Below are positions 11,275-62,968 of a DNA stretch of 64,000 nt, in pieces. Made by a program: the position numbers and the translations under genes. The first letter of the stretch is position 1, and each line of letters opens with the position of its first letter. This DNA comes from Terriglobia bacterium (GTDB lineage: Bacteria > Acidobacteriota > Terriglobia > UBA7540), in contig JBEKHR010000029.1 in assembly GCA_050012175.1 (NCBI GenBank), positions 1,205-65,204 of the forward strand, written 5' to 3'. The notes under the pieces are model-generated. The model was not told the origin of the DNA, searched no databases, and saw only the letters and a list, made by a program, of their open reading frames with translations.

Positions 11275-11333
11275 CTCGAAAATCGAAAATCGCAGTGAAT
11301 TTCAAGTTTCGATTTTCGAGTTTCGATTTTCGT
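11275..11333. repeat. heptad-repeat hairpin immediately after the rlmB stop (terminator-like)
   Basis: TCGAAAATCGAAAATCG ... CGATTTTCGAGTTTCGATTTTCG: 7-nt units arranged as an inverted pair. Confidence 0.6.
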
Positions 11334-11446
11334 GCTAACAACGCGAGGAAAGGCGAAATTCGACTGTTACTGCTGCAAATCGGCCGGCAACGCCAAGGCA
11401 CATGCACACATCTTATGAATAAGCGAGGCTGTGCGTAAAGGAGCGA

Positions 11447-12619
11447 ATGCCTGTGAATTCCACTTCTGCTTTTCTAAAGTCCGCCTTAACCCTGGTTCTC
11501 GCGGGTGGCTTTTGTGGCCTCAGCCTGTGTCCCTCTACCCGCGCCCAGGAAGGAGTAGCCGGCGATAACCCCGTGGTCTCGAAGCCCAAGCAAGAGCCGC
11601 CTGCTGACGCCAAATCGTCCAAGAACGAGCCGCAGATTCGGGTCACGTCGAACTTGGTGACAGCGCCGGTGACGGTGATTAATTCCAAAGGCGACTTCGT
11701 TTTCGACCTGGAGGAAAAGGACTTCGAGATTCTGGACAACGGCGTGCGCCAGCGCATTGAACAGTTCAGCCTGGAGCAGCACAAGCTGCTAGCGGTCATT
11801 GTGGTGGAAGCCAATAGCACCTCGGAGCCGCTGCTCGGCGAGGTCCGCCCCCTCGGCCCGGTTTTCTCCAGCCTGATGCTGGGGCCACAGGGAGAGGCTG
11901 CGGTGGTCACTTACGGCGATCAGATTCGCGTTGTCCAGGAATTGACCCAAGACAGCAATGAGCTGGAATCCGCCCTGCGCGGTCTCGAGGCGCGTGGCAG
12001 CTCGGCGCAGTTGAATGACGCCTTGGCGCGCGCCATCTCGCTGCTCGAAAGCCAGCCGAAGGAAAACCGCCGAGTGATCATAGCTTTTTCGGATGGCCAT
12101 GACTTGGGGAGCGAAACCCGTAAGGCAGAGGTCGTGCAACGCGCCGTGAACGCGGGGATCACGATCTACGGTCTGGGATTCAGCCCGGGGCGCGCGCTGC
12201 TGGCCAGGCAACCGAAGGCTCCGCCACCGGACCCCCTGGACGTCAACATGGCACGCCCCTTGCCTCCCAACACTGCGCCCACTCCCTCGAACGAGGAGAA
12301 AACCTGGGATGTGCCCACCCTCCCGATCGTTCCACTCATCCTGGCGAGCGGGGAAATGATCCGCTCCACGGTGGCCAAGAGCGCCCTGGAGTTCTATGCC
12401 GGGTACACCGGCGGGGTGTGTTATGCGCACTGGTCAACGAAGGCGGTGCAGGATGAGCTCAACCGGATTGCCGACGAAATCCAGAGCCAGTACGAAATCG
12501 CTTACGTGCCTCACGCGCCCAGCGAGAACGGTTTTCACCGCATCCAGGTGCACGTGGACCGAAGCGGGGTCAAGGTGCGGACAAGGGCAGGATATTTCTT
12601 AGGCGGGACCAGTCCCTAG
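11447..12619 (+). CDS. secreted VWA-domain protein (acidobacterial VWFA-related family)
   Basis: Signal peptide, then the conserved N-terminal module (IRVTSNLVTAPVTVINSKGDFVFDLEEKDFEILDNGVRQRIEQF). VWA core, and a C-terminal ...NGFHRIQVHVDRSGVKVRTRAGYF. The architecture is shared with 37717-38757 and 38864-39826. Confidence 0.8.
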   Translation: MPVNSTSAFLKSALTLVLAGGFCGLSLCPSTRAQEGVAGDNPVVSKPKQEPPADAKSSKNEPQIRVTSNLVTAPVTVINSKGDFVFDLEEKDFEILDNGVRQRIEQFSLEQHKLLAVIVVEANSTSEPLLGEVRPLGPVFSSLMLGPQGEAAVVTYGDQIRVVQELTQDSNELESALRGLEARGSSAQLNDALARAISLLESQPKENRRVIIAFSDGHDLGSETRKAEVVQRAVNAGITIYGLGFSPGRALLARQPKAPPPDPLDVNMARPLPPNTAPTPSNEEKTWDVPTLPIVPLILASGEMIRSTVAKSALEFYAGYTGGVCYAHWSTKAVQDELNRIADEIQSQYEIAYVPHAPSENGFHRIQVHVDRSGVKVRTRAGYFLGGTSP

Positions 12620-12627
12620 CAGTCTGG

Positions 12628-12691
12628 CTGTCAGCCGTCAGCTCTCAGCTATCAGCATGCTCGCTGAAAGCTGACGGCTGAGAGCTGACAG
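12628..12691. repeat. heptad-repeat hairpin between convergent genes
   Basis: CTGTCAGCCGTCAGCTCTCAGCTATCAGC / GCTGAAAGCTGACGGCTGAGAGCTGACAG. The units follow NTCAGCN with a 7-nt period. Confidence 0.6.
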
Positions 12692-12719
12692 CTTGGAGCG
12701 GCGGGGCCATCAGTTCCCT

Positions 12720-13217
12720 TCAAGAATAATCCTCGTAGGGCATCACCTCGACACGCTTCCCTGACTTCAGCTCGATCTCGGCAAGATAAGGGCGCATCGA
12801 AAGGGGATCGGCTCTCAAGACCACCACGTGAGTCACGCCCTGCTTTTTGCAGACAATGGTGAAATATCTATTTTGCTTGCCCGCCATCAGAATATTGGGG
12901 TAGGTCGTCCACTTGAGCTTCAGCTTGCGCACGCGGCGGCTCACATCCGGGCGAAATTGCATCAGCGCAATCGTCGAAAAAGGCATAACCACCGAGCCCC
13001 CAGGACACTTGAAAACCAGACTCTCCAGCGTGACTTCCAACTTGCCTGCACAATCTATTTCGATTTTCTCGGTTCCGCCCGCATATTGAAAAACTGCGTC
13101 CCTGGTGGGTTCAATTCCAAAAGCCGCGCTTGACGGAACTAGTATCATGAAGACCAGCGGCCAGATCTTCCGGGTTCGTTTTGCCCAATCTAATTTCATT
13201 AACCATTTGCTCCACAA
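12720..13217 (-). CDS. hypothetical secreted protein
   Basis: 165-aa ORF with an N-terminal hydrophobic signal (IWPLVFMILVPSSAAFG) and a protein-like composition. I recognise no motif. Confidence 0.55.
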   Translation of the reverse strand: MWSKWLMKLDWAKRTRKIWPLVFMILVPSSAAFGIEPTRDAVFQYAGGTEKIEIDCAGKLEVTLESLVFKCPGGSVVMPFSTIALMQFRPDVSRRVRKLKLKWTTYPNILMAGKQNRYFTIVCKKQGVTHVVVLRADPLSMRPYLAEIELKSGKRVEVMPYEDYS

Positions 13218-13328
13218 GCATCAAGGGCCACGCCGGCGGTTCACCTCCGGCTCACTTCCCAATTCTAACGCGGGATTACCCTCCGGGGGAATATTTCTCT
13301 CGCGGCCACGTCATGCTGCCTCGGGCCT

Positions 13329-14015
13329 TCACCGCCCGCTCGGCAAACGCGTGCCTGCCTGGGAGGGGGCGTTGTAGACGGGGACGTCAACCTCGAGGTA
13401 CCAAGGAACAGAGAGAGCACCCCAGCGCGCCGGCCGGAACGACCACCCCTCGATGCTCTTCCTTGCCCCTTCAAACAGAGAGGGAATGCCTTTTAGGATT
13501 GCCGAATCGATCACTTTGCCTTCCGCGTTTACGAGCAAGCGCAAGCGCACCGAAGGATCAGTGGAAGCGGTCTTCTCCGGCCCCGCCAATACTTCGGGAG
13601 GTTTGACTTGACGGCCGAAGTCGGATTCCGCCTGCAGGGGAGCAAGATCCATTTTCCTTATCCGCAGCGTGAAATTAACGTCCACCGCAGTTGCGAAAGA
13701 GGTGGCACCACCCTGTGCCACATACGGGCGATAACGCCACATTCGAACCCTGTCCAGCACGGCCGCCGCCAGAAGGGGGTTGCCGCTTAGCACGTGCGCC
13801 CCCACCACCGAACCGGCGGCGGAGACCTCAAGGCGCACGCGAACTCGGCCCTGAATGTAGTTCACCTTGGCCAGGGCGGGGTACTCCGGAGGGACTTGGT
13901 CCAAAAGCAGGCCTGTAGCTTTCTTGGCATCCAGGACCAGGAGTTGCTGCTCTCCCTCTGCACGCTGTGCCCAGGCGCACGGCAACTCAAGAAGGCAAAG
14001 CAGCGCGATGCTCAT
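13329..14015 (-). CDS. protein with two TonB C-terminal-like domains
   Basis: Signal peptide MSIALLCLLELPCAWAQ, taking the ATG at 14015; the ORF track extends to 14084 and would overlap acpS. Contains PEYPALAKVNYIQGRVRVRLEVSAAGSVVGAHVLSGNPLL and a second similar repeat near the C-terminus. Confidence 0.7.
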   Translation of the reverse strand: MSIALLCLLELPCAWAQRAEGEQQLLVLDAKKATGLLLDQVPPEYPALAKVNYIQGRVRVRLEVSAAGSVVGAHVLSGNPLLAAAVLDRVRMWRYRPYVAQGGATSFATAVDVNFTLRIRKMDLAPLQAESDFGRQVKPPEVLAGPEKTASTDPSVRLRLLVNAEGKVIDSAILKGIPSLFEGARKSIEGWSFRPARWGALSVPWYLEVDVPVYNAPSQAGTRLPSGR

Positions 14016-14049
14016 ACCTTTCAAGTAACGCCAGCCCGATTGGTGTACG

Positions 14050-14439
14050 CTAGCCATCGGCCTCAAAAATGACCTGAGCGACAACGTAACGGTCAGAGTG
14101 TGAAATCGATACCGCGGTGCGTGTCACTCCCATGCGGCGGGCAATTTCCTCCGCCCGACCCCGGAGGATCAACTCCGGCTTGCCGCTCGGCGCGTGAGTT
14201 ATTTCCACGTCCACCCAGCGTACCCCCTCACCCCAGCCGGTCCCCAAAGCCTTAAATGCCGCCTCCTTGGCTGCGAAGCGGGCGGCAAGCCGCTCCGCCT
14301 GGTTCTTGAACTTCCCGCAATACGCGATCTCCGCGGGCGTGCACACGCGCTTGGCAAAACGCTCGCCGTGCCTCTGGAGAGCTTCCTCGACGCGAGAGGT
14401 CTCCAATATATCGACGCCAGTCCCAACTATCATGACCAA
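14050..14439 (-). CDS. acpS: holo-[acyl-carrier-protein] synthase
   Basis: IVGTGVDILETSRVEEAL...FAAKEAAFKALGTG...GKPELILRG, with a length of about 125 aa. Confidence 0.9.
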   Translation of the reverse strand: MVMIVGTGVDILETSRVEEALQRHGERFAKRVCTPAEIAYCGKFKNQAERLAARFAAKEAAFKALGTGWGEGVRWVDVEITHAPSGKPELILRGRAEEIARRMGVTRTAVSISHSDRYVVAQVIFEADG

Positions 14440-14461
14440 GAAGCCGGTGGCTGCTCCGGGC

Positions 14462-14929
14462 TCAGCGCGCTCTCTTAACCGCGCCGGCCGCTTCCTTATG
14501 GTTCGCCGCGCGCTCGTAGGCCCTGACAGTGTAGTAAATGGCCTTGTCGAAAAACTGGCCTAACATGCGCTGGAGTTCCAGCGCCTGGTAAAGGTCCACG
14601 GCAGAGTCGATCAAGCCGGCAGCCCGAATATAATCTCGCAGATGATACTTGGTCAAGGTGAGAGCGTAAACGACCTCGCTCAGGGGGATTCCCTCGACCT
14701 CGCGTTCTTTTCCCAGCTCGGTGTAAGCTGCTTCGATGTCCTCCTCCGCTTTGCTGCTCAACCACAAGCCGAGATTCTTGTACACATTGTGGGTGCGATC
14801 GTGAATCGCTTTCCAGGAAAGTTGGTGGTAAGAGGCCGTACGCAGGTTAGACTGAAGGTTTTCGACCAAGGCACGCGTTAACTCATCTGCGTGTTGTTCG
14901 ATCATCCGGATCAGGCGATCAGATAACAT
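14462..14929 (-). CDS. hypothetical helical protein (RsbRD N-terminal-like?)
   Basis: 155-aa ORF, all-helical in appearance, immediately upstream of acpS on the same strand. The family assignment is only a weak impression. Confidence 0.5.
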   Translation of the reverse strand: MLSDRLIRMIEQHADELTRALVENLQSNLRTASYHQLSWKAIHDRTHNVYKNLGLWLSSKAEEDIEAAYTELGKEREVEGIPLSEVVYALTLTKYHLRDYIRAAGLIDSAVDLYQALELQRMLGQFFDKAIYYTVRAYERAANHKEAAGAVKRAR

Positions 14930-15037
14930 AGTTTCCCTTTCACTTATTCGGAGCTTCCAGCCCTGATATCCGGCTATTCAGCGTATCAGAGCGGCGGTCA
15001 AAGTTCAACTCGCCGCGCCACCTGGGGACCGTGCGGG

Positions 15038-16036
15038 GTGTGCTATATTCGGGTGTTGGCTCCTCCGGTTTCACAAACCGTTTCGCGTGGCGGGCTAGTC
15101 TGGATTGAGCACCCGCTCATCGGCCGTTATTCTTGGCTGGTCCATGCATTCAGTACCCGCTGGGGTGGGGTGAGCCGTGGTCCGTGTGCGGGGCTGAACC
15201 TCGGATTCACGCCGGGCGAGCCGCGCGCCAGGGTGCGGGAAAACCGGGAACTTTTCTTGCAGCAGCTTGGCGCGGAACACTTCGCGCTGGCGGCGCTCCG
15301 GCAAGTCCATTCCGCCAGTGTCTATCAAGTTCTGCGTGCAACCTGCGGCGAACTCGAGTACCGCTCCGGCGGGAATCGACTGCCTGAACAGCCTGGCGTT
15401 GCGCAACCCGCAGGGGATGCGCTGTTGACCGAGGAGGCTGGTATCCTGCTGTCGGTGAGAACCGCCGATTGCCTGCCCGTGCTGCTGGTGGACCCGAAAC
15501 ATCGAGCTGTGGCGGCAGTTCATGCCGGGTGGCGTGGCGCGCTGGCGCGCCTGGTGGAAAAGGCTGTGGGGGAGATGCGCCGCGGATATGGTTCTGAGCC
15601 TGAGAGCCTGCTTGCCGTGCTGGGTCCTTCCATCCGCGCGTGTTGTTATGAAGTGGGGGACGAGGTGGAGGAAGCGTTTTTGGGGCGCTTCCCGCACGCG
15701 CATAAGTTCTTTCGCAAGGTATCTGAACCCCCCGCCTCGCATCGCAAACAGCGTCCGCTCTCCTTCTTGAATGTGCAGCCGCCGGGCCACGAACCCGCCT
15801 GCGCGCCTCCCATTCATCTTGACCTGGTTGCCGTTGCCCAGGATCAGCTCCTGGCAGCAGGGCTTGCACCTCACCATGTCGCCACGGTGGATTTCTGCAC
15901 GGCCTGCCGCACGGACCTCTTCTATTCCTATCGCCAAGAGGGAAGCCGCACCGGCCGCATGCTGGCGGTCATCGGAATCTGTCCGAAGGCACGCCAGCGG
16001 GGAGCGCTCAGCTCGAGGCGCGAATCGGCGCGCTAG
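15038..16036 (+). CDS. pgeF: peptidoglycan editing factor PgeF / YfiH (DUF152, laccase-domain) family
   Basis: HAFSTRWGGVS...GLNLG...NRELF...QVHSASV...DALLT...ADCLPVLLVDP...AAVHAGWRG. The start (GTG at 15038) is uncertain. The 3' end overlaps the rlmN end by 29 nt (convergent). Confidence 0.85.
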   Translation: MCYIRVLAPPVSQTVSRGGLVWIEHPLIGRYSWLVHAFSTRWGGVSRGPCAGLNLGFTPGEPRARVRENRELFLQQLGAEHFALAALRQVHSASVYQVLRATCGELEYRSGGNRLPEQPGVAQPAGDALLTEEAGILLSVRTADCLPVLLVDPKHRAVAAVHAGWRGALARLVEKAVGEMRRGYGSEPESLLAVLGPSIRACCYEVGDEVEEAFLGRFPHAHKFFRKVSEPPASHRKQRPLSFLNVQPPGHEPACAPPIHLDLVAVAQDQLLAAGLAPHHVATVDFCTACRTDLFYSYRQEGSRTGRMLAVIGICPKARQRGALSSRRESAR

Positions 16037-17093
16037 GGTCGCCGGTTCGCATTCCTTCCAGGTGGAGTTGGCCGCAGGCGGCGCCAATATCCTGTCCCCG
16101 TGAAATGCGAATGTAGGCTGGAATGTGCCGTTCCGTCAGGAGGCGCTGAAAGGCTAGGACTCTCTCGAGAGGCGCGGGGCGATAAAGAAGCTCGGAGCCG
16201 GGATTGTAAGGGATAAGGTTGACCTTGGCGCGCATTCCTCGCAGCAGCTCCGCCACGCGCACGGCATCGGCGTCCGCGTCGTTAAAGCCGCCCAAAAGGA
16301 CGTACTCGAAAGTGAGCAGCTCTCGCGGGCGCAACGGATAGGCGCGGCAGGCGCGCATGAGCTCGCGGAGCGGGTATTTTCGGTTTATCGACATCAGCTC
16401 GGTCCTCTGCTGCTCGTTCGAAGCGTTGAGCGAGATGGCCAGCTTCGGACGTCTCGGGTCACGGGCAAGGTCGCGCACGCCGGGGACGATGCCCGAGGTG
16501 GAAATCGTAATGCGACGAAGCGGAATGCCAAGACCTTGAGGATCCGCGAAAATCCGGATGGCTTTCATCACTTGGGCGAGGTTCAGAAGCGGCTCGCCCA
16601 TTCCCATGAAGACCAGATTGAGCCTTGAACGGGGGGGAATCTCGCGGGCTTTTGCCACCGCCAGTACCTGTCCAAGAATCTCACCCGCAGAAAGGTTGCG
16701 CTTGAGTCCTAAGAGTGCGGTGAAGCAAAACCGGCAGTCCACGGCGCAGCCCGCTTGGCTGGAAAGACAAAGCGTGATCCGCTCTTCCTCGGGCATATAC
16801 ACCGTCTCAACGGCGGTGTTGTCCTGAAGACGCAGCAGGTAGCGGGCGGAGCCATCCTTCGATATGAACTCGCCCTGGACATCGGGATAGGTGATTTCAT
16901 AATGAGCCGCCAGGGCCTCTCTGAAATTCCTGTCGAGGTCCGTCAAGGCGGCCACATCCCTTTCCCGACGGTGGTAAAGCGCATGATAGAGCTGGCGACC
17001 GCGATAAGGCGCCTTCCCCAACGACCGCACCAGTCGTTCCAACTCCTGGCGATTAAGCCCCACAAGGTTATGGCCTGAAGTTCCGGCGTTCAT
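16008..17093 (-). CDS. rlmN: 23S rRNA (adenine2503-C2)-methyltransferase, radical SAM
   Basis: CAVDCRFC radical-SAM cluster motif, plus NLVFMGMGEPLLN and LAISLNA. 361 aa. Confidence 0.92.
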   Translation of the reverse strand: MNAGTSGHNLVGLNRQELERLVRSLGKAPYRGRQLYHALYHRRERDVAALTDLDRNFREALAAHYEITYPDVQGEFISKDGSARYLLRLQDNTAVETVYMPEEERITLCLSSQAGCAVDCRFCFTALLGLKRNLSAGEILGQVLAVAKAREIPPRSRLNLVFMGMGEPLLNLAQVMKAIRIFADPQGLGIPLRRITISTSGIVPGVRDLARDPRRPKLAISLNASNEQQRTELMSINRKYPLRELMRACRAYPLRPRELLTFEYVLLGGFNDADADAVRVAELLRGMRAKVNLIPYNPGSELLYRPAPLERVLAFQRLLTERHIPAYIRISRGQDIGAACGQLHLEGMRTGDPSAPIRASS

Positions 17094-17220
17094 AGGATGC
17101 CCTGATCTTAAGTCATGCTATCATGCTGACCGGAGCACCTCAAGCCATTGCTTCGAAAACGTCAGGCTAGGAGTGATTATGCGTAAGGCGTGGCTGCCAC
17201 GGAAGGGCGGCCGATTAGGG

Positions 17221-17248
17221 TTGACAAATGGTGCCAGAGATAAATAAT
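17221..17248 (+). promoter_or_regulatory. candidate sigma-70-type promoter for the TetR gene
   Basis: TTGACA (17221-17226), 16-nt spacer, AATAAT (17243-17248), about 32 nt upstream of the ATG at 17281. An AGGGGG SD lies at 17271-17276. Confidence 0.4.
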
Positions 17249-17280
17249 CCGTCCAGACGCTTTTTCCCACAGGGGGATTG

Positions 17281-17886
17281 ATGAGCCCACGCAGGGCCAA
17301 TCCGGAACTGGCAGAGCGCCGCCGCGAAGCTCTCCAGAGGGCAGGCTACGCGGAAGTCGTGGAGCGGGGGATCGAGGCTACGACGCTGGATTCCGTAGTG
17401 GCCAGGGCTGGCTCGAGCAAGGGGGGGGCTCTCTATTATTTCCGGACTAAAGAAGACCTCCTCTTCGGCGTCCTGGAGTGGCTGCTCCGCCAGTTGAACC
17501 GCAGCTTGGACGAGGTTGTCCATACTCAGGAACCCGCGCGCATCCGGCTCGTGGCCGAGCTGGAAGTTCTATTTCACAGCACCGAGGTCAATCGCAAGCT
17601 TTATTTGGTCTTCTTCGATTTTGTCAGCCGCGGTGCACGCTCCGAACGTTTTCGCAAGCTCTTTTCAGAGTTCTTCGGGAAGTGCCGGCAGAGGGATACG
17701 AGAATCGTGGAAGACGGAATCAGAGAGCAGCAATTCCGCCGGGTCAACCCGGTGGATGCATCTTCCACCATTCGTGCGCTGGTCGACGGTTACTGTCTCC
17801 AGTGGTTGATGGGCCCTGAGAACGTACCGGTGGAAGTTTACCGCGACCGCTGCCGGGCGGCGCTTGGCGCGTATCTCTTGCGTTAA
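17281..17886 (+). CDS. TetR/AcrR-family transcriptional regulator
   Basis: N-terminal HTH: RREALQRAGYAEVVERGIEATTLDSVVARAGSSKGGALYYFRTKEDLL. About 200 aa. Confidence 0.88.
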   Translation: MSPRRANPELAERRREALQRAGYAEVVERGIEATTLDSVVARAGSSKGGALYYFRTKEDLLFGVLEWLLRQLNRSLDEVVHTQEPARIRLVAELEVLFHSTEVNRKLYLVFFDFVSRGARSERFRKLFSEFFGKCRQRDTRIVEDGIREQQFRRVNPVDASSTIRALVDGYCLQWLMGPENVPVEVYRDRCRAALGAYLLR

Positions 17887-18268
17887 CCACAGAGCAGTGA
17901 TGAGTGATGCCGCAGACCGGGAACGCGTCAGGAGCGGAAACAGCGGAGACGGAAGGCAGTAGGCAGTGTTTTCCCCTCTACCACCCGCTGCCCGGCCAAA
18001 AATACCTGAACCCCTATTTCCCAAATCAACTCTTTCCTACGCAGCTTCGCGCGTCCGCTACCATCCGTGTTTATGCGGGTTTGAACGCGGTGCAAACACC
18101 ATAGAGGTGTACCCGCCGCGGCAACCTAATTGATCCGGACATTTGATGTGCTAACAACCGTCGTCGCCGACGGGCCTTGACCGTGCGCCAGGGTGGTGAG
18201 ACAATGCACGCAGCCGTCTTCCGAAATAAACCCGTCAGGCGCGGTGCGTTCGCCGCTGGATCATCGAG

Positions 18269-19165
18269 TTGGCTGATGGGGACCTGGAGGTTGTCATGAG
18301 ACGCGGTAGCGCAATTCCAAACACCTCAACTGAGTATTTCCAGCGGGAAGGTAAGTGGGCTTGGCTGGGTACGGTCTTCATGCTTGTTTATCTTTCAACT
18401 CCCGCGCCTGCGGCGCAGGTGCGTGTCATCCAAGGGCAGATGGTACGGCTCAAGCTCCACAATGTGCTGACCACGGAAAACGTGGTCAAAGGCGACCCGA
18501 TAGATTTTGATGTTGCCGAAGACGTGGTGGCGGCAACTCATGTGGTAATCCAAAAGGGAGCACCGGCGCGAGGCAAGGTGGTTGGCGTGAAGGGCGCAGG
18601 AAAGAAAAGGGCGAAGGACGCCTCGGTGACTTTCCAGTTTGTGTCTGTCCGCTCCGTTGATAGTCAAGATATTCCGCTCCGTGCACGCCCCGATAGACAC
18701 AAGAAAGCAGAATCCAAAGAGAATGAGATTGAGGCCAATGACCCACTTCCCGGCTATGCCGAACGCGTGATTGGGGCTGAGAAAGGGAAGGAATACGCAG
18801 CTTATGTCGATGTTTCAGCTACTGTGAACGTTCCTGATACCCCGGTCGCTCCGCCCCCGATCACACCCGTGCCCCCCGCACAACAAACGCCGGCGAACCC
18901 CCAGAGGGAAACTCCGCCCGCGGCTTCTACCCCTTCGATTGCAGTGCCGGAAGAGCCGGCTTTGGTGGACTTTAACAGTAATCCACCGGGAGCGGACATT
19001 CTGATTGACGGCAACTTGGTCGGGAACACCCCCTCTACGCTGCACGTTGATGCGGGGCGCCACCTCATCCAGTTGCGAATGGGTGGGTATCGCTCCTGGA
19101 CGCGCACCATGAGGGTCGAGCCGGGTTCGTCCCCTTTGATTCGCGCCACTCTGGAAAAGCAGTGA
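18269..19165 (+). CDS. secreted PEGA-domain protein
   Basis: Beta-rich N-terminal domain, a Pro/Ala/Thr linker, then a C-terminal PEGA-like module (NSNPPGADILIDGNLVGNTPSTLHVDAGRHLIQLRMGGYRSW). It is a paralog of the next gene. The start may be the ATG at 18296. Confidence 0.75.
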   Translation: MADGDLEVVMRRGSAIPNTSTEYFQREGKWAWLGTVFMLVYLSTPAPAAQVRVIQGQMVRLKLHNVLTTENVVKGDPIDFDVAEDVVAATHVVIQKGAPARGKVVGVKGAGKKRAKDASVTFQFVSVRSVDSQDIPLRARPDRHKKAESKENEIEANDPLPGYAERVIGAEKGKEYAAYVDVSATVNVPDTPVAPPPITPVPPAQQTPANPQRETPPAASTPSIAVPEEPALVDFNSNPPGADILIDGNLVGNTPSTLHVDAGRHLIQLRMGGYRSWTRTMRVEPGSSPLIRATLEKQ

Positions 19166-19235
19166 ACGGGCAGGATTGGGGTGGGACCGGGCTGCTGGAG
19201 AAATACGGAAATAATACTCGGAGCTGGAGGGTATC

Positions 19236-20123
19236 GTGAAGGTCAAGCATTCGATTGGAATGGTTCTTGTCTGCATGCTGATCCCGAGTTGCCTGGCTTT
19301 CGGCCAGCGGGTGCGCCTGCCTGAGGGGACTGCCGTGCGTGTGCGTTTGAAGGCTGACCTCGCGAGTGACCAGGTCGAGGAGGGCGCGCGCGTGGATTTC
19401 GAGGTGGCCCGTCCCGTGATCATCCAGGGAATAGCCGTGATCCCGGTAGGAGCTGTTTCGTGGGGCGCCGTGCAAAGTGTTAAGAAGGGGAAGTTCATCA
19501 AGTTTGACATCGAAGGTGTCAGGTTGCCGGACCTTACCGCCGTCAAGCTGCGCACAGTGGGCGGGAGAGCCAAGAACCCTGCGCAGGATCAGATCAAGGT
19601 TGAGGCGAGTTTTAGAGGTAGGGTTGGAGCGCCGAAAGGAAGCGAATACACGGCGTATGTCAATGAGGATCGAGAAGTGGCCGTGGCTGCGCAGCCCAAC
19701 ATCCCCGCACTCGCCCTTACGCCCACCGCTGCTGCGACCACACCTCCCACGCCTGCGCAAGTGGTAGAGCCAACGCCTTCGACAGCTACACCGGCCGTGA
19801 CCTACCCAAAGCCAGCGGCGCCACCAGCGGTAACCACCCCAGCGGCTTCTGCGACATCCCCCGCGATCTCACCGGGCGAATCGGCGGCGCCGCTCGCCAA
19901 CGTCGAGAGGACCACGGTGGAGTGTTTCTCCGATCCCTCCGCCGCCGACATCCTGATCGACGGGGAATTCTATGGCAACACCCCCTCAATCTTGAAGGTG
20001 CCGGTTGGCAAACACCAGTTGGAAATTCAGCTTTCCGGCTATAAGACTTACTCGATCCCGCTGATCCTGGAGCCAGGTACGCAGATTCGTACCATCCGCG
20101 CCAGTCTCGAACAAAAGGAATAG
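19236..20123 (+). CDS. secreted PEGA-domain protein (tandem paralog)
   Basis: GTG start preceded by GGAGGG. Signal peptide MVLVCMLIPSCLAFG. Same architecture as the previous gene; C-terminal SDPSAADILIDGEFYGNTPSILKVPVGKHQLEIQLSGYKTY. Confidence 0.8.
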   Translation: MKVKHSIGMVLVCMLIPSCLAFGQRVRLPEGTAVRVRLKADLASDQVEEGARVDFEVARPVIIQGIAVIPVGAVSWGAVQSVKKGKFIKFDIEGVRLPDLTAVKLRTVGGRAKNPAQDQIKVEASFRGRVGAPKGSEYTAYVNEDREVAVAAQPNIPALALTPTAAATTPPTPAQVVEPTPSTATPAVTYPKPAAPPAVTTPAASATSPAISPGESAAPLANVERTTVECFSDPSAADILIDGEFYGNTPSILKVPVGKHQLEIQLSGYKTYSIPLILEPGTQIRTIRASLEQKE

Positions 20124-20848: not shown

Positions 20849-20858
20849 GCCTCCCGCT

Positions 20859-20942
20859 GTCATTCCGAGCGAAGCGAGGAATCTCGCGCTGGTCTGTGGA
20901 TCAAGGACTCAGAGCGAGATTCCTCGCTTCGCTCGGAATGAC
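20859..20942. mobile_element. GTCATTCYGAG-family palindromic element (core only)
   Basis: Perfect 29-bp inverted arms: GTCATTCCGAGCGAAGCGAGGAATCTCGC (20859-20887) and GCGAGATTCCTCGCTTCGCTCGGAATGAC (20914-20942). Confidence 0.75.
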
Positions 20943-20962
20943 ACCCTCGCGGTACGGAAGAC

Positions 20963-21020
20963 GGGACAGGGAACGGCCTAATTCTTATGCCCTCCCTGTT
21001 CCCTATTCCCTGTTCCCTGC
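20963..21020. repeat. heptad-repeat hairpin (GGGAACA units)
   Basis: GGGACAGGGAACGG ... CCCTGTTCCCTATTCCCTGTTCCC. The same unit family occurs at 38756-38857. Confidence 0.55.
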
Positions 21021-21203
21021 TTATGCCCCACCGTCGGAAACAGGCGCCAGCTTGTAAACGATTTCAGCGTCCTCGAGTAGCTCCTCCGCAACCTTCAGAC
21101 ACGCCACACGCAGGCACTTGGTGTCCAGGCAGGTCGGACAATTCACAATGATGCGATCAAAGAGGTAATCGGCAAGCTCTTGTTCCCCAAAAGTGTGGGC
21201 CAT
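21021..21203 (-). CDS. small Cys-containing hypothetical protein
   Basis: 60-aa ORF containing CPTC...C...C. It is protein-like but short. Confidence 0.35.
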   Translation of the reverse strand: MAHTFGEQELADYLFDRIIVNCPTCLDTKCLRVACLKVAEELLEDAEIVYKLAPVSDGGA

Positions 21204-23198: not shown

Positions 23199-23343
23199 CT
23201 CCACGCTGTCCCCTGAACCATGTCCCCCGTGCCCCGAGAGTGCCGTCGAGAATGTGATTTCAGCTAACACATCGGTATTTGTCGTACGGTTCATGAGTGG
23301 TGTCTCGTGATATCCAGTGTTTGATGCGGACAGGTCCCGGCCT

Positions 23344-23386
23344 GTCATTCTGAGTCCGCCATTCTTATTGGCGGACGAAGAATCTC
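23344..23386. repeat. GTCATTCTGAG half-element
   Basis: GTCATTCTGAGTCCGCCATTCTTATTGGCGGACGAAGAATCTC. Positions 23344-23378 are the exact reverse complement of 8847-8881. Confidence 0.7.
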
Positions 23387-49870: not shown

Positions 49871-49873
49871 GTG

Positions 49874-50728: not shown

Positions 50729-51153
50729 TTTCCCTCCCTGCCATCCTGATCCATCATCGCTAGGATGGAGCGTCGGCGCAACCCGATTCTTGCTGCCGGA
50801 GGATGTTTGAACCCCAATTCGAAGGTTGGAGTTGTTACCGTAGTCCACGGGCGCGCCCAATGCTGTCATCCTAAGTGCCCATGGTCTGATGTGGACGGGA
50901 TTTCAATTCGTCTCACGCGTCTCGCTTTTTTGAAGTGTTCTGCACCAGCAAGATCAAGTTTTCATGTGTTTTCAATGGATTAGAAGAACGCCGGGGATAT
51001 GCGCCGAAGCGCATGAATGTGGCATTTTGAGACACTTGGCGGTTCGCCCGCTTAATAGTACGCTACATTGATAGCCCATCGGTGCAAGGAAACTGCCGGG
51101 ATGCTTCGTCCCCCAAAGAGCGGCGTCCTCAGCATGACATGGGGCTGCACGGC

Positions 51154-51301
51154 AAGTCAAAAGTCAAAAGTCGAAGGTCGAGAGTAGGCTAACTGGAAAC
51201 GAGCGCGACGAATTTCGGATATTCCAGACTGAAAATTAGAAGCTCGACCACAAGGCCGCCAATTTCGATTTTCCAGTTTCTAGTTTCCAGTTTCTAGTTT
51301 C
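51154..51301. repeat. heptad-repeat tracts (AGTCAAA units and GTTTCYA units) with partial inverted pairing
   Basis: AAGTCAAAAGTCAAAAGTCGAAGGTCGAGAG ... TTCGATTTTCCAGTTTCTAGTTTCCAGTTTCTAGTTTC. A related tract in the opposite orientation lies at 58051-58087. Confidence 0.6.
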
Positions 51302-52268: not shown

Positions 52269-52293
52269 TGAGCCTCCCCACTTCTCCAGTTCA

Positions 52294-52770
52294 CAGTTGA
52301 CAGTCGACAGTCGACAGTTAACAGATTGCCAATCGTATCGACGTGAACCGAACGGATTATGATGCGGGGAAAAAGTGACGGAGTAAATAGGTTTCAGGGG
52401 CCAGGTGTCAGGGGCCAGGTGTCAGGGGCTGGGGGCTTGGGTCCGGGCCAATCTTGAATTCTGAATTCAGGACTGCACTCTCTCACCACGTCGTCCCTAG
52501 TGTCCTGTCCCGCCTTATTGTTGACAACGAGCAGCTTGGCAGGAACCCCCTCACCCGGCCCGCCTCCCGATGAAGTACATCGGGACGGCGGTCCACCCTC
52601 TCCCCCAAGGGGGAGAGGGGCGGGGGAGCGAGGGGGTATTGTGAACAATTAAGTGGGACAGGACACTAGCTCCCAGCCACTAGCCCCCAGCACCATCTTT
52701 TTGAAAGCTGGAAACCAATGGCCGAGAATGAATAACGGACCACTGACAACTGACAACTTCTCTCAGACTG
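52294..52770. repeat. nested ('onion') repeat region: heptad tracts outside, a 163-bp TIR element inside
   Basis: GACAGTC heptads at 52294-52324 and 52751-52770. CAGGGGC/CAGGTGT heptads at 52395-52435. Perfect 15-bp TIRs CTAGTGTCCTGTCCC (52497-52511) and GGGACAGGACACTAG (52645-52659) enclose a GGGGAGAGGG-type palindrome (52544-52638). Confidence 0.7.
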
Positions 52771-52797
52771 ACATGCCGAAACGACCCCCCGATTCAA

Positions 52798-55026
52798 TCA
52801 CATATTCTTCAGCACCCACTGAACGCGCTGCACGGTTGGTTTGGCGACGGCGGGTGCGGGGCCGGTGGCGGTGACGGTGGTTGAGGGGAACCACGGCGGC
52901 GCAAATCCTTGGGTGGCGGCAAACCGTTGGTCGAAGTACACGTTGAAGGTAGTTATGTTGACTCCGTGAGCCGCATTCTCAATCCGACCGCCCACATTGG
53001 TCACGGTGTTGATGGAGCCTTCGTTTGTACTGAAGCCATAATTCTGACCTGCCTTAAGCGCCGCCATAGATGCATCAATCTCCAGGTTGTTGTTTGAATA
53101 ATTGCTGTTGAGGTTGATGTTTCCGTTGGCCGTAAAAAGGCCCAGCACCTGGCCGTTATTGTGCCCGGGGATCAAGGTATCGGCGGGGTCCCCATTGCAA
53201 CAAGCCGGGTTCGTTCCTGCCACAACTTGGTTCTGTGTCGTAGTGACAGGTTCGGTTTTGTAAATCAAATCACCCTCGATATCGATATCGCCATTGGCTG
53301 CAATGGTGATGGCATTGTAATCTTGAATGCCCGCCTGCCCCTGACCTGGGCCGCTCAAACCACCGGGGCAGTTGCTACCATACGAGCAAGAGGCGATATC
53401 GCCGTTCACGTAAATCATGGTGCCTGGCTGCGGCGTACTTCCGCTTAGGTTCATGGGGGCAGCGCAGAAGTTGACGGTAGTGGTCGAACCTGATCCCACC
53501 TTGGTCCCCACCGTAGTAGTGCCGGTCGTTCCCGCAGGACAGTTCCAGGCAGTTGGTGGGGTCGCGAGCGGATCAACCGTGATGGTCGTGGTTGTAGTGT
53601 TACTCCAACTACTCTGTGAAATGGTAAAAACCTGCGCGGACGTTCCGCTGGTCGAAAGCGTTATGCTCGCGTCTCCCTGCACATAGAAGCCGCCCCCATC
53701 GAAGGTGTTAACGCTGCCAGTCGTGGTGTAGGGAATATAAACCCCAGAGGAGGATCCGCTTGGCGGATTGGGATAGGCAGTTCCGGAAGCGGTTTGAAGC
53801 GGAGGGTAATTCGGAGAGCTACCGCTAAGGTTACCGTTGTGCATTTGAGTGGAATTGGGAGCGAGGGAACCCTCGCCCGTGCCTTTGCCATCAAGCACCG
53901 CCCACTGCTGGCTGAAATCATTCGGCGGCAGGGCCTCGGTGTTGAGTCCGACGCTGAAGGGCGGGTTTCCTTCAAAGGTGGGCTTAATCGTCTGCGCTTG
54001 GCTTCCGCTCCCGTACTTGTAACTGCTGGTTGGAGACTGAATGCAGGTGTTTCCAAACCAGAAGTCTGCATCGGCGTTCGCCTGCCCCACGGGGTCGGTA
54101 AAGATATAAGAGCCGCTGGTGCCAAACTGCCAGGCGCCATTCGTAAACTGGGGGCCCGTCAAGGTGCCGGGGACCAGCGGCCCGAGGCAGGGCGGGAACT
54201 GGTCAATGAAGGCACCATAAGCGGCGAAGCTGGGCGTGGAGGTTGGCTGTAGGCCGCTGACAGCCAAAATGATACTTCCAGTCTCGGATACGGTGGTCTG
54301 CTCCGAACCCTGGGCCATTCCCCTGACGCAGAGTTGGTAGTTATAAATATATTTATACCCATTTGGGTTATTATTAGAGTCGTAAGAGGTTATAGTGGGC
54401 GAATTGGGTGCGAGGGAAAAGGTGGTCGGGCACCCCGTAGTGTTAGGAATCACGAAGCTCTCGACCCATGAGTTGGCAGCCTGGCCGGCATTGAGAGAAG
54501 TGGAACTCGCGTACGCCGTCAAAACGCTGCTCAAAACTGTCGCCGCTGCGCCCGCGGGGATCGGATTCGTCGTGAAGGTGCTGGGAACCTGAGCAACGAT
54601 CTGGCTTTGCAACTGTTGCCGGGCGATGTTGAGTCCGGAGTCCGCAGCGTAGAACGATCCTCGGGCGTTGCGGTAATAACCGTTGATCAACATGTCGGAG
54701 CTCGAGGAAAAGACCATCGCCAGGGCCATGAGGCTCATCATGCTCAAGAGCAGCAGGGTGAAGACGAGCGCAAACCCGTGATCTCCATAATGCTGCTTTC
54801 GCAGCCCCGTCAGGGGCGGAATCCCGCGGACGCGGGACCAGGGCGCCAGCCCTGGGTGGAGGGCCCTCACCCCGCCTTCGACACCCCTCTCCCGCGCGAG
54901 CGGGAGAGGGGACGGGGGTGAGGGAGGGTTCGCTGACCCATCCCGCACTGCGGGACCGTGGGCTACATTCTTTCGCCCCGACACGTCGGGGCTGATTTCA
55001 TCAACGAATTCCCCTCTGCCGTTCAT
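52798..55026 (-). CDS. giant PilX-N-domain minor-pilin-like protein (742 aa) with a large Ser/Thr/Gly/Asn-rich extracellular region
   Basis: GFALVFTLLLLSMMSLMALAMVF...SFYAADSGLNIARQQL is a PilX N-terminal-type segment. It is the last gene of the pilin operon. The start is uncertain: the only in-frame ATG (55026) lies upstream of repeat modules that would be translated. Confidence 0.7.
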   Translation of the reverse strand: MNGRGEFVDEISPDVSGRKNVAHGPAVRDGSANPPSPPSPLPLARERGVEGGVRALHPGLAPWSRVRGIPPLTGLRKQHYGDHGFALVFTLLLLSMMSLMALAMVFSSSSDMLINGYYRNARGSFYAADSGLNIARQQLQSQIVAQVPSTFTTNPIPAGAAATVLSSVLTAYASSTSLNAGQAANSWVESFVIPNTTGCPTTFSLAPNSPTITSYDSNNNPNGYKYIYNYQLCVRGMAQGSEQTTVSETGSIILAVSGLQPTSTPSFAAYGAFIDQFPPCLGPLVPGTLTGPQFTNGAWQFGTSGSYIFTDPVGQANADADFWFGNTCIQSPTSSYKYGSGSQAQTIKPTFEGNPPFSVGLNTEALPPNDFSQQWAVLDGKGTGEGSLAPNSTQMHNGNLSGSSPNYPPLQTASGTAYPNPPSGSSSGVYIPYTTTGSVNTFDGGGFYVQGDASITLSTSGTSAQVFTISQSSWSNTTTTTITVDPLATPPTAWNCPAGTTGTTTVGTKVGSGSTTTVNFCAAPMNLSGSTPQPGTMIYVNGDIASCSYGSNCPGGLSGPGQGQAGIQDYNAITIAANGDIDIEGDLIYKTEPVTTTQNQVVAGTNPACCNGDPADTLIPGHNNGQVLGLFTANGNINLNSNYSNNNLEIDASMAALKAGQNYGFSTNEGSINTVTNVGGRIENAAHGVNITTFNVYFDQRFAATQGFAPPWFPSTTVTATGPAPAVAKPTVQRVQWVLKNM
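54864..54925. repeat. GGGGAGAGGG-type palindromic module inside the 5' end of the pilX-like ORF
   Basis: CCCTCACCCC...CCCTCTCCCGCGCGAGCGGGAGAGGGGACGGGGGTGAGGG, followed by the TCCCGCGGACGCGGGA hairpin at 54822-54837. Confidence 0.7.
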
Positions 55027-55035
55027 GACATCACC

Positions 55036-57762: not shown

Positions 57763-58010
57763 CCCGAATTCGAAAGTTGGGAGCCGCCGGTCGAGCCGAA
57801 TCAATTGATTCGAGGCCCGTTTGACGGAGATACCGGAGGAACAAAATGGTGCGGGGTCGGGCGTAGGGGCACAGCGCGCTGTGCCCCTACAAGAGGCCCG
57901 TTTGACGGAGATACCGGAGGAACAAAATGGTGCGGGGTCGGGCGTAGGGGCACAGCGCGCTGTGCCCCTACAAGATGTACGTCGCACCCACGCTAACTTC
58001 CGAATTCGGG
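57763..58010. mobile_element. MITE-like element (copy 2 of the 42537-42702 family) with an internal 81-bp tandem duplication
   Basis: Same TIRs as copy 1 (CCCGAATTCGAAAGTT ... AACTTCCGAATTCGGG). Units 57813-57893 and 57894-57974 are identical, and each contains the GTAGGGGCACAGCGCGCTGTGCCCCTAC hairpin. Confidence 0.8.
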
Positions 58011-58226
58011 TTGAGTGGTTGCGCTAAGGATGACGGTTGCCTTCGCAATCAGAAAGCGGAAATCGGAAACTGGAAATTAGAAACTGGCAGCTAACGCAAT
58101 GGAGTTTTAGCGGGTTGTCCCCAACGAGGGCGGAGAATCCCGCGCTTCGCCCCGGTCGAGCGTCGTGTGGCCCTACATGCACAGGGGCCGGGGGCTGCGG
58201 CAGTAGGGGCGGTTCGCGAACCGCCC

Positions 58227-59666: not shown

Positions 59667-59684
59667 GACCTTCTACCCCCCTTT

Positions 59685-59847: not shown

Positions 59848-59870
59848 GCTGCGCCGAACGCGGTTCGGCC

Positions 59871-61400: not shown

Positions 61401-61432
61401 AGCATTGAGTCCTGTAAGAGTATTTTCAAGAG

Positions 61433-61556
61433 CAGGATTCAGGATTCAGGGGAAAGAAATGTGCCGGAGGGTGAGTGCTAAGGGTTTGCTCCTCCCTAGA
61501 TTCCAGCCCCTGTTAATCCCTGGCTCCTGAATCCCGAATCCTGAATCCTGAATCCT
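61433..61556. repeat. inverted heptad arms (GGATTCA units) between xylB and the oxidoreductase gene
   Basis: CAGGATTCAGGATTCAGGGG ... CTCCTGAATCCCGAATCCTGAATCCTGAATCCT. The unit family is the same as at 31936-32155 and 62941-62968. Confidence 0.65.
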
Positions 61557-62715
61557 AGATCTTCACTTTCTCCCACCGCCCTGACTTTGCCGAGCGCTCC
61601 ACAGCGTCCAGGACGGCTTGAACCTTCACGCCTTCGCCAAACCCGGGCTGGGCAGGCTGGCCCTTCTCCAATCCCGTCAGGAAGTCGTGGAGGGCATGGA
61701 CGAACGTGTGCTCGTAACCAATGATGTGGCCTGGTGGCCACCATGCGCCGACGTAAGGATGGTTGCCCTCTGTCACCATGATCGTCTTGAAGCCCTGCTG
61801 CTCATTGGGCTCCGTGCGATCATAGAATTCCAGCTCGTTCATCCTTTCCATGTTGAAAGCCAGACTGCCTTTGCTGCCGTAGATTTGGAAGGTGTTGTAA
61901 TTCCTCCGGCCCCCGGCGAAGCGTGACGACTCAAAGACTCCCACGGCGCGGTTCTTGAAGCGGGCGAGAAAGTTCGAGTCATCATCCACTGTGACCTTGC
62001 CTTTCTTCCCTTCTGCTCCTTTGGCTCCCCAGGCGCCTTCACCGGTGCCGGGCAAAGGCCGCTCCCTAATGAACGTGGTCATCTGGCCGGCGACTGATTC
62101 GATGTAACCATTCAGGAACTGGGCTAGGTCGGCGGCGTGTGCCCCGATGTCTCCCAGGGCGCCGCTGCCCGCGTATTTTTTTTCCAGGCGCCAGACCAGG
62201 GGGAAGTCTGGATCCATGATCCAGTCCTGGAGGTACGCGCCGTGATAATGATAGACCTGCCCCAGGCGGCCCTCTTCGATGAGCTTCTTGGCGAAGGCTA
62301 CCGCGGGCACCCGGCGATAATTAAAGTTCACCATGTGGGAGACACCGGCTTTTTCCACCGCGCGGAGCATCTCCTTGGCCTGAGCCAGATTGTTGGCCAG
62401 GGGCTTCTCGCAGATAACGTGCTTGCCAGCCTCGGCGGCGGCTATGGCCATGGGGTGGTGAAGGTACCCCGGCGTCGAGATATCCACGAGGTCAATATCC
62501 TTACGTTCGATTACCCGGCGCCAGTCGCAGTCGGACTCTTCCCAGCCCAACTGCTGCGCCGTGGCCTCGAGTTCTTCGCTGCAAGCCTTCCCACAGAGCA
62601 CTTTCATGCGCGGCCGATACTTGCCGGGAAAGAACCTGCTGACCTGCCGGTAAGCGTTTGAATGGGCCTTGCCCATGAATTGGTGACCGATTAGAGCAAC
62701 GTTGATTTCTGGCAT
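61555..62715 (-). CDS. Gfo/Idh/MocA-family NAD(P)-dependent oxidoreductase
   Basis: MPEINVALIGHQFMGKAHSNAY (Rossmann N-terminus) ...EKPLA... ATG at 62715 preceded by AAAGAGGTG. Confidence 0.85.
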   Translation of the reverse strand: MPEINVALIGHQFMGKAHSNAYRQVSRFFPGKYRPRMKVLCGKACSEELEATAQQLGWEESDCDWRRVIERKDIDLVDISTPGYLHHPMAIAAAEAGKHVICEKPLANNLAQAKEMLRAVEKAGVSHMVNFNYRRVPAVAFAKKLIEEGRLGQVYHYHGAYLQDWIMDPDFPLVWRLEKKYAGSGALGDIGAHAADLAQFLNGYIESVAGQMTTFIRERPLPGTGEGAWGAKGAEGKKGKVTVDDDSNFLARFKNRAVGVFESSRFAGGRRNYNTFQIYGSKGSLAFNMERMNELEFYDRTEPNEQQGFKTIMVTEGNHPYVGAWWPPGHIIGYEHTFVHALHDFLTGLEKGQPAQPGFGEGVKVQAVLDAVERSAKSGRWEKVKI

Positions 62716-62737
62716 CTTCGGATTCACCTCTTTCCAT

Positions 62738-62968
62738 AAGTGACAAGTGACGAGTGACAAGTGACCAGCGGGAACTACAGGAGTCAGAGGAGAAGGGGCT
62801 GGGGACTAGGGGCTGGGGAAGCACGGAAGGCAACTGGCAGTCAGCAGCCGCCCAAAAGAAACCGCGATCTGGTGTTGGTGATTTGCCCTTCACTGCTCCC
62901 TAGCACGCACTCCCTGCTCTTCTGCCTACCTCCTACTGACCCCTGACTCCTGAATCCTGAATCCTGCT
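62738..62968. repeat. intergenic heptad tracts (AGTGACA, GGGGCTG and GGATTCA units)
   Basis: AAGTGACAAGTGACGAGTGACAAGTGACC (62738-62766); GGGGCTGGGGACTAGGGGCTGGGG (62795-62818); CTGACTCCTGAATCCTGAATCCTG (62944-62967). Confidence 0.6.

Follow-up and report, generated by a model that had tools for sequence, protein, structure and literature searches.

Tandem repeats of heptanucleotide units have reportedly been noted in bacteria since 1990 and recognised as the commonest class of long simple sequence repeat (SSR) since 2007; the short tandemly repeated repetitive (STRR) heptamers are said to go back to Mazel in 1990 and, for RNase P RNA, to Vioque in 1997. Here we analyse a 64-kb stretch of DNA from a Terriglobia bacterium of the phylum Acidobacteriota (the window, meaning the whole stretch), in which many intergenic spacers carry tandem arrays of heptamers, often as inverted pairs, and we set these arrays beside the closest systems described so far. 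In cyanobacteria, STRR sequences are 7-bp tandem repeats of unknown function that form hairpins between genes, as in hupS-hupL, and the roles proposed for them concern transcript stability, translational coupling and termination (PMC2670836). According to later summaries, Mrazek (2007) found that heptanucleotide repeats outnumber every other long SSR in most genomes, invoked slippage, and proposed that the polymerase may contact DNA over a length of 7 nt (PMC4679880, PMC4692102). In Geobacter metallireducens (Aklujkar 2009), 'global regulator binding sites' of three classes are paired on opposite strands at variable distances, for example at proB-proA, and comprise four GTTGCTYN octanucleotides, three TCTCCGTS[Y] units or five MTYCTGA heptanucleotides (class 3), which the authors guessed, without a test, to be binding sites for IHF/HU (PMC2700814). 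Rehm (2015) reported intergenic arrays of GGGAATC in Xanthomonas and GGGGAYT in Nostoc that vary in length and sequence between close relatives (PMC4692102), and MacGregor (2015) reported direct repeats of TAACTGA in marine Beggiatoaceae, cyanobacteria and Bacteroidetes, many of them a short way before a start codon (PMC4679880). Finally, the repetitive extragenic palindromes (REP) and their BIME and REPIN arrangements bear a GTAG/CGTC tag, are associated with RAYT transposases and vary in copy number between strains (PMC3116915, PMC3733652).

An earlier sequence-only reading of the window, made without database searches, knew of no description of this class. The class is in fact known from several of these papers (PMC2670836, PMC4692102, PMC4679880, PMC2700814), which have described it repeatedly yet left it unexplained, and what our analysis adds is an acidobacterial host, turnover at orthologous spacers and a polarity rule. 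We think it probable, though by no means assured, that the tracts are STRR-like heptanucleotide microsatellites: a dispersed, non-coding repeat class of the DNA level, driven by slippage.

The window has a GC content of 56-61% and is about 15% non-coding, and its intergenic part, after correction of the gene map with JGI gene calls and Pfam, amounts to 9,322 nt. The closest genome bins, labelled 'Terriglobia bacterium SPRUCE 311/596', show 96-97% amino-acid identity in a probe protein, and identical contigs recur in several JGI and ENA peat metagenomes, the lineage being one of uncultured peat Terriglobia (Acidobacteriota). Because the HIP1 octamer is not enriched (one occurrence in the window versus 2.3 expected) and the nearest genomes are Terriglobia, we reject a cyanobacterial origin for this DNA. 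No tRNA genes were found in the window, and Rfam returned no match at the gathering score across its whole length and none at E≤1 within 50700-52900.

Arrays were detected using TRF together with a self-match scan and were scored against dinucleotide shuffles. Period-7 arrays were recovered in this way at essentially all the places where the sequence-only reading had seen intergenic heptamer tracts. That reading had also proposed weighing period 7 against periods 6 and 8, and the outcome in the intergenic part of the window was 19 arrays versus 0 and 0; indeed, none was detected for any of the periods 4-6 and 8-12, and the shuffles gave a mean of 0.04 and a maximum of 1. Over the whole window, a strict score yielded nine arrays at period 7, none in 30 dinucleotide shuffles, and 0-1 array for each period between 2 and 21 other than the multiples of 7, and a lenient score yielded 21 arrays at period 7 versus 0-4 at the other periods between 4 and 12. 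TRF likewise returned about 30 rows of period 7 or 14, other periods being merely scattered. In coding DNA, the expected periods 6 and 9 appear instead of 7, and 20 of the 21 arrays are non-coding; the exception, a weak array at 23117-23148, lies in the sequence for the Leu-rich signal peptide in an outer-membrane efflux lipoprotein gene and was set aside. About 12 unit families occur within the 64 kb, CAGGATT at three loci and GGGAACA, TCAGCNN and CTRGAAA at two or three loci each.

Within the window, arrays occupy three of the four convergent spacers, 7 of 23 co-directional ones and one of five divergent ones. They touch or overlap stop codons at 38756, 51301 and 61556, and lie 2-19 nt from stop codons at 11276, 12630, 37046 and 62966; others (31937, 32154, 52287, 61433) are found 9-43 nt from start codons. 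The description of the tracts as sitting after stop codons or between convergent genes thus applies to many of them, but not to the divergent spacer at 31937-32154 or to the array at 62738-62765, which closely precedes a Shine-Dalgarno sequence and a start codon. Most had been said to have an inverted partner 10-150 nt away: about nine inverted pairs, accounting for 18 arrays or about two thirds, were indeed identified, although the partners of two pairs are 235-420 nt apart, and 6-7 arrays have no inverted partner (37046, 41779, 58047, 62738, 62795, 62936). Relative to shuffles, the clear pairs fold with z-scores of -3.4 to -9.6, with no significant fold at 37046, 58047 or 51150-51305, or over the whole spacer 62730-62972. 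The hairpins are not followed by a U-tract, as had been noted, except in the CGAAAAT family, in which the 3' arm carries T4 runs.

We then compared the arrays with those of related genomes. The comparison set comprised 80 loci from other genomes, with L006-L008 at about 95-97% nucleotide identity to the window, together with five relatives at 83-92% protein identity (L214-L218), whose contigs were gathered through homologues of the VWA protein and in which the two spacers flanking the VWA gene were compared. The arrays of the window are kept at the same places in L006-L008. Their unit numbers differ, however, in line with the variation that the sequence-only reading had proposed looking for in orthologous spacers: in L007 the array at 51259-51301 is shorter by exactly 14 nt (two units), and the right outer arm at 52734-52758 is longer by 28 nt (four units), while L015 retains both the 51154 and the 51259 arrays. 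Furthermore, the array at 58047-58087 is missing from L007 and L008, and the sequence between inner arms at 52441-52660 has been swapped in L007 for unrelated REP-like sequence. L010, which is a closer relative by gene content, has one array versus six in L007 over the same 21 kb.

Among the more distant relatives, the CGAAANT hairpin at 11276 is orthologous in four of the five (L214-L216 and L218), where its loop, CGCAGTGAG, is conserved and its arms vary independently, with about 2-5 units on the left and 2-9 on the right (3 versus 9 in L216). In L217 the hairpin is precisely absent, leaving GAGCCGA joined directly to CGGCC. The convergent spacer that holds a TCAGC-family hairpin in the window (12627-12693) has none in L214; in L215 its hairpin is of the CGAAANT family, and in L216-L218 arms of that family surround an insert of 90 nt. 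Length differences between relatives were always multiples of 7, as slippage predicts, and such differences, taken with the independent variation of the arms, point to slippage. Unit numbers did not change within one strain across seven metagenomes, in which no hypervariability at the population level was seen; the arrays are dynamic at the scale of species divergence rather than hypermutable. In their period, dispersed unit families and unit-number variation between relatives, they belong with the heptanucleotide long SSR/STRR-like class.

The inverted pairs also follow a polarity rule. When L007-L218 are pooled with the window, the 5' arm is the G/purine-rich one on both strands in 113 pairs versus 9, a measure that is invariant to reverse complementing. 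The ratio is 53:8 without the RAGTGAC family, 39:7 when each family contributes one pair (p ~2e-6) and 18:5 in loci that were not selected for RAGTGAC. The order RAGTGAC then GTCACTY is found 53:0, and CGAAANT always stands before CGANTTT. Ordinary exact hairpins outside arrays in the same sequences display no polarity (145:132). The rule is seen in co-directional (40:2), convergent (18:5) and divergent (13:2) spacers, and because it is kept in the last of these and the coding-strand GC skew is 0.008, we reject both GC skew and the orientation of neighbouring genes as its source. In addition, unpaired arrays beside stop codons are G-rich in the sense direction in 28 cases versus 11. To our knowledge, a rule that the G/purine-rich arm comes first has not been stated in print before. 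It indicates that either the genesis or the survival of the pairs is filtered by a process that polymerises 5' to 3', and our preferred guess is that hairpins with the C-rich arm first would be lost, as they would offer Rho a place to load.

Within a family, loci that lie apart agree in the order of their variant positions and in their defined ends. Thus, the reverse complement of 12663-12693 agrees with 37046-37078 at 30 of 32 nt, 12637-12656 and 37046-37065 are alike in direct orientation at all 20 of 20 nt, and the right arm at 20993-21019 agrees with 38756-38786 at 30 of 31 nt in reverse complement, variant unit included; similarly, CGAAANT copies all begin with RGCCGAAAC, 2-6 nt past a stop codon. 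The shared order of variants indicates that the members of a family are copies and not independent local inventions. The proposal that the tracts are not a single mobile family is upheld, with the qualification that each family is itself dispersed with shared variants and ends.

Pooling all loci gave 104 unit families at a first tally and 139 at a more lenient score, without a shared core. Trinucleotide enrichment among the units is mild (CAG/CTG, z 3.7; AGT/ACT, z 3.0) and many units lack a stop trinucleotide, which led us to discard both a shared core motif and stop codons in all frames as explanations. Across the 80 loci, period-7 arrays cluster in the clade of the window and in Blastocatellia/Pyrinomonadaceae bins. 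In L020, L024 and L042, which belong to the latter, period-8 arrays are as common as period-7 arrays, some period-9 arrays occur, and the same inverted pairs are formed; at L042:3543-3679 an 8-mer pair is nested around a 7-mer pair. Arrays of (RAGTGAC)n were found in at least 120 metagenome contigs (L087-L206, retrieved with one 27-mer of this repeat), with GC contents of 0.37-0.72 and up to more than 20 units, and also in the Pyrinomonadaceae loci L024, L034 and L042; among the matches listed, the contigs hold 297 period-7 arrays versus 17 of period 8. The 28-mer AAGTGAC AAGTGAC GAGTGAC AAGTGAC is common to the window and Pyrinomonadaceae, but its value as evidence of recent transfer is weakened, because arrays of (RAGTGAC)n with mixed A-first and G-first units are very common and such a shared pattern is not improbable. 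In L087-L206, these arrays often adjoin other heptamer arrays (CCTRAAA, AGAAGTC, TAATGGC) and frequently have flanks of TAAGAGC…GCTCTTA, which lengthen the hairpin.

With 139 families lacking a core and length changes of ±7n, as slippage predicts, the best reading is the one already offered from the letters of the window, namely a common generating mechanism acting on unshared sequence. We suggest that the arrays arise and change length through replication slippage set by a ruler of about 7 nt, which would correspond to the polymerase-contact idea of Mrazek (2007). An inverted partner might be made by fold-back or template-switch copying, or be copied from another locus; purifying selection would restrict the arrays to spacers, within which they could grow right up to stop codons or ribosome-binding sites; and the long hairpin, lacking a U-tract, in transcripts that run across a pair would be a by-product that is tolerated and perhaps co-opted now and then, not what the arrays exist for. 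Several points weigh against this slippage reading. It leaves the total lack of periods 6 and 8 here unexplained, though Blastocatellia/Pyrinomonadaceae have both 7 and 8, and the dispersal of homologous copies requires a copying mechanism besides slippage. Unit numbers were constant within the one strain followed across metagenomes. Function could account for the strength of the polarity, for one hairpin persisting in relatives at 83-92% protein identity and for the tight placement beside stop codons, and genes in the pooled loci were assigned by crude calls based on open reading frames (ORFs).

The alternative that survives best takes the paired arrays to be functional RNA hairpins, serving in both directions as terminators or attenuators that have no U-tract, or else as REP-like barriers to 3'-exonucleases, and we regard it as unlikely, if still a serious contender. 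The pyrimidine-rich 3' arm would provide a weak RNA:DNA hybrid in place of the U-tract, and the purine-first polarity would fit a weak rPy:dPu hybrid in that arm, so that the polarity could be read in favour of a terminator or stabiliser role. The occupation of three of four convergent spacers, the abutting of stop codons at a median of 5 nt and the stable folds (z -3.4 to -9.6) agree with such a role, which has also been suggested for STRR hairpins (PMC2670836), and canonical hairpin-plus-U terminators are about as frequent as chance predicts in positions 1-20,000 of the window (21 versus 21.6 expected). However, pairs are also found in divergent spacers and before start codons, one third of the arrays are unpaired, unit numbers drift independently in the two arms (3 versus 9 in L216), and L217 and L214 do without the hairpin. 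The arrays do not look like intrinsic terminators, lacking a U-tract outside the CGAAAAT family and forming pairs in divergent and 5' positions as well. In co-directional spacers, arm mismatches on the sense strand comprise 21 G·U versus 19 A·C, and selection on RNA structure is thus not visible as a G·U excess. With no such excess, and with arrays in every type of spacer, a dedicated terminator role is unsupported, and the terminator or mRNA-stabiliser function that the sequence-only reading had put forward gained no positive support. A structural role, moreover, offers no reason for a 7-nt period.

We consider it improbable that the arrays are non-autonomous mobile elements of REPIN or miniature inverted-repeat transposable element (MITE) type, whose arms would be moved by an enzyme acting in trans and whose 7-nt register would be that of the enzyme's binding or of a staggered cut. 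Mobility would produce an exact empty site such as the one in L217, which has CGA beside it, and the replacement of one family by another at the same spacer. It would also produce dispersed families whose members have variant patterns and defined ends in common, and a polarity that is constant within a family (RAGTGAC then GTCACTY, 53:0). The arms also resemble terminal inverted repeats around variable cargo (L007, L216-L218), and in Geobacter insertion sequence elements lie at a fixed distance from such sites (PMC2700814). Yet no convincing target-site duplication was seen, the sole and ambiguous one being the CGA at the L217 empty site, and the array arms have no GTAG/CGTC REP tag. In about 2 Mb of pooled sequence, same-family pairs less than 100 nt apart are inverted in 103 cases versus 34 direct, an excess that is absent at 0.4-6 kb (62 versus 66), and no autonomous element carrying arrays was found; without an excess of long-range inverted pairs, we reject the idea that the arrays are the terminal inverted repeats of an autonomous transposon. 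Furthermore, 139 unrelated units would require many enzymes or a sequence-blind one, and the ±7n changes inside arrays are more simply explained by slippage.

A dedicated, sequence-blind process with a fixed step of 7 nt (8 nt in some lineages), building polar palindromes across several phyla, seems to us quite improbable. In such a process, the G/purine-rich strand would always run 5' to 3' towards the dyad, which is the geometry of two telomeres fused head to head; examples might be repeated synthesis at a 3' end with subsequent fold-back, or traces left by an enzyme not yet recognised. Were it true, the polarity rule (113:9 versus 145:132) would be its signature. Least likely of all, we think, is that the arrays are multi-site binding platforms, be it for a nucleoid protein or global regulator on DNA (IHF/HU) or for an RNA-binding protein that forms a ring and whose register would be 7 nt (HutP-like, Csp, CsrA), since 139 families share no core, unit number and sequence drift freely and arrays are lost without replacement in close relatives, which outweighs their regular spacing and inverted pairing reminiscent of operator arrays, the mild CAG/CTG and AGT/ACT enrichment, the recurrence of (RAGTGAC)n upstream of Shine-Dalgarno sequences and start codons in Pyrinomonadaceae and the window, and the earlier proposals of IHF/HU for Geobacter (PMC2700814) and of an RNA-binding protein for TAACTGA repeats (PMC4679880).

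Turning to the individual loci, the hairpin at 11276-11332, detected by TRF and the self-match scan, pairs (TCGAAAA)x2.4 with (TTTCGAK)x4.7 around an 8-nt loop (-20.2 kcal/mol, z -3.4 for 11270-11340) and begins 2 nt past the stop codon of a SpoU-methylase gene (10480-11274). The one at 12627-12693, detected by the same two means, pairs (GTCAGCY)x4 with (GCTGANN)x4.4 around a 6-nt loop (-48.9 kcal/mol, z -7.8 for 12622-12700) in the convergent spacer between the VWA gene (stop 12619) and a 159-aa gene (stop 12720). At 20963-21019, a short left arm, GGGACAGGGAAC, faces a right arm of (TCCCTGT)x3.9 (20993-21019; z -3.6 for 20955-21025), and the hairpin adjoins a REP-like palindrome at 20857-20945. 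Outer arms of (CAGGATT)x4.6 (31937-31968) and (GAATCCY)x4.6 (32123-32158) bound a 230-nt structure at 31936-32158 (-115 kcal/mol, z -9.6 for 31930-32160), which lies in a divergent spacer and holds a 74-nt repeat in its inner part. The (TCAGCNN)x4.7 array at 37046-37078 (forward strand) is unpaired (z -0.1) and lies 19 nt past the RmuC stop codon; it is followed by an imperfect pair of (GTGAATN)-type arrays at 37109-37148 and 37206-37232 (fold z -2.6). In a convergent spacer, (AGGGAAC)x4.7 at 38756-38788 starts inside the TAG stop codon of the upstream gene and has a two-unit partner, TCCCTGTTCCCTG, at 38843-38857 (fold z -2.2).

The degenerate (CTRGAAA)-type array at 41779-41804 (reverse strand) forms the C-terminal tail (…EAKEKSETRKQKK…) of a 90-aa ORF ending at 41758. 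The sequence-only reading had rightly recognised a heptad tract in the tail of this CMD/Sec-candidate gene, and comparison with L008, where a full hairpin of GAAATCAGAAACTAGAAAGCAGAAACTAGAA and CAGTTTCTAGTTTCTG stands at this position (L008:18575-18635), identifies it as a left hairpin arm. An insert of about 470 nt comes after this hairpin in L008. Relative to the window, L008 has an insertion of about 510 nt (L008 18600-19112), made up of REP-like palindromes, exactly at the loop side of the array (window 41778/41779). The CMD/AhpD-like ORF at 41758-42399 (reverse strand) contains an in-frame TGA at 42154-42156, at the second Cys of a CxxC (…SQANHCFY-TGA-IEAHGEDL…), and past this TGA it runs into the 90-aa ORF ending at 41758, which from the sequence makes it a putative selenoprotein; a modest hairpin (-15.3 kcal/mol) lies 3' of the TGA.

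At (AAGTCRA)x4 (51154-51181) and (TTTCYAG)x6 (51259-51301), mutual pairing is weak (fold z +1.0), and the second array overlaps the stop codon of an EamA gene. The nested palindrome further on has outer arms of (CAGTYGA)x5 at 52287-52324 and (GACAACT)x3 at 52734-52758 (z -8.4 for 52280-52765), and inner arms of (CAGGGGC/CAGGTGT)x5.4, from 52389 to about 52429-52435, and at 52664-52691, which flank a strongly self-paired core of 220 nt. Its 310-nt part at 52385-52695 is extremely stable (-164 kcal/mol, z -7.3) and has no Rfam match. The unpaired (GAAANYG)x4-6 array at 58047-58087 (z +1.1) shares its unit family with 51259-51301 but is turned the other way with respect to the genes on either side. 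At 61433-61450 and 61525-61556, (CAGGATT)x2.6 and (TCCTGAA)x4.6 are paired 75 nt apart (-51.8 kcal/mol, z -4.3 for 61428-61560); the former lies 33 nt upstream of the start of an FGGY kinase, and the latter overlaps the stop codon of a Gfo/Idh/MocA gene. The true start of this gene (ORF 61555-62760) is the ATG at 62715 and not the TTG at 62760, which leaves the unpaired (AAGTGAC)x4 array at 62738-62765 intergenic, 22 nt upstream of the ATG and just 5' of the Shine-Dalgarno sequence. Two further unpaired arrays follow: at 62795-62818, the proposed GGGGCTG heptamer tract is a real repeat but is better described as a GGGGCTG/GGGACTA array of period 14, and (CTGAMTC)x4 at 62936-62966 begins 7 nt past the stop codon of the upstream gene.

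Separate REP-like palindromes are present in the window at 20857-20945 and in 57.8-58.2 kb. A second, unrelated family of dispersed palindromes (GCTGTCATTCCGAGCGAAGCGAGGAATCTCGC… / …GAGATTCCTCGCTTCGCTCGGAATGACA) occurs at 20857-20945, 50.85 kb and 51.13 kb and in the L007 and L008 inserts, and GTAGGGGCGG…CCGCCCCTAC palindromes are also repeated among spacers, at times between heptamer arms. An 81-nt stretch is perfectly duplicated in tandem at 57812-57975 (2.0 copies at 100% identity); it contains the REP-like palindrome GTAGGGGCACAGCGCGCTGTGCCCCTAC and is a single copy in L006. In the OEP lipoprotein ORF at 21714-23348, the long N-terminal extension upstream of the lipobox (…FSSAC) is doubtful.

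In practical terms, the arrays lengthen ORFs (the tail at 41779), mislead start calls (62760 versus 62715) and break short-read assemblies. Acidobacteriota emerge as a rich host lineage for heptanucleotide repeats, and this lineage supplies natural 'before and after' alleles at orthologous spacers. The rule that the G/purine-rich arm comes first is a constraint that any mechanism must explain, and it can be checked in complete Nostoc, Xanthomonas and Geobacter genomes.

Compared with the known systems, the arrays share with REP and REPIN sequences their small size, dispersal and extragenic palindromic form, often as inverted pairs after stop codons without U-tracts, but REPs have no internal 7-nt periodicity and the arms here bear no GTAG/CGTC tag, which places the arrays outside that family. 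As with TAACTGA, one heptamer, (RAGTGAC)n, occurs across distant phyla without an evident mechanism of transfer; the TAACTGA repeats, however, are almost all direct (one indirect in 170 sets) and consist of one dominant unit rather than many. Some of the arrays of Rehm (2015) are inverted pairs between convergent genes, and they vary extensively between close relatives while their positions are conserved, as here, but that work focuses on G-quadruplex units, whereas GGG runs occur here only in some families (AGGGAAC, CAGGGGC); judged by sequence, the four or more G3+ runs with short loops expected of a G-quadruplex are present at 38756-38788 and in part at 52389-52435, but not in most families. 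The dominance of period 7, the intergenic location and the diversity of units agree with the survey of Mrazek (2007), the available summaries of which mention no inverted pairing, arm polarity or Acidobacteriota. Tandem 7-bp units in several families per genome, dispersed between genes and often forming hairpins, equally characterise STRR sequences; the host here is a member of the Acidobacteriota (Terriglobia) and not a heterocystous cyanobacterium, HIP1 is not enriched, and the units are not CCCCAGT, TTGGTCA or CAACAGT, and the arrays are thus STRR-like and not STRR sensu stricto. Finally, although Geobacter belongs to another phylum, its sites likewise consist of three to five tandem units, of 7, 8 or 9 nt, paired on opposite strands in spacers, with periods 7 and 8 coexisting as in the Pyrinomonadaceae loci, and, compared by consensus, class 3 MTYCTGA is the ATCCTGA/CTCCTGA (CAGGATT) family of the window, whose units at 31937-31968 / 32126-32154 and 61433-61450 / 61525-61556 are paired 75-158 nt apart.

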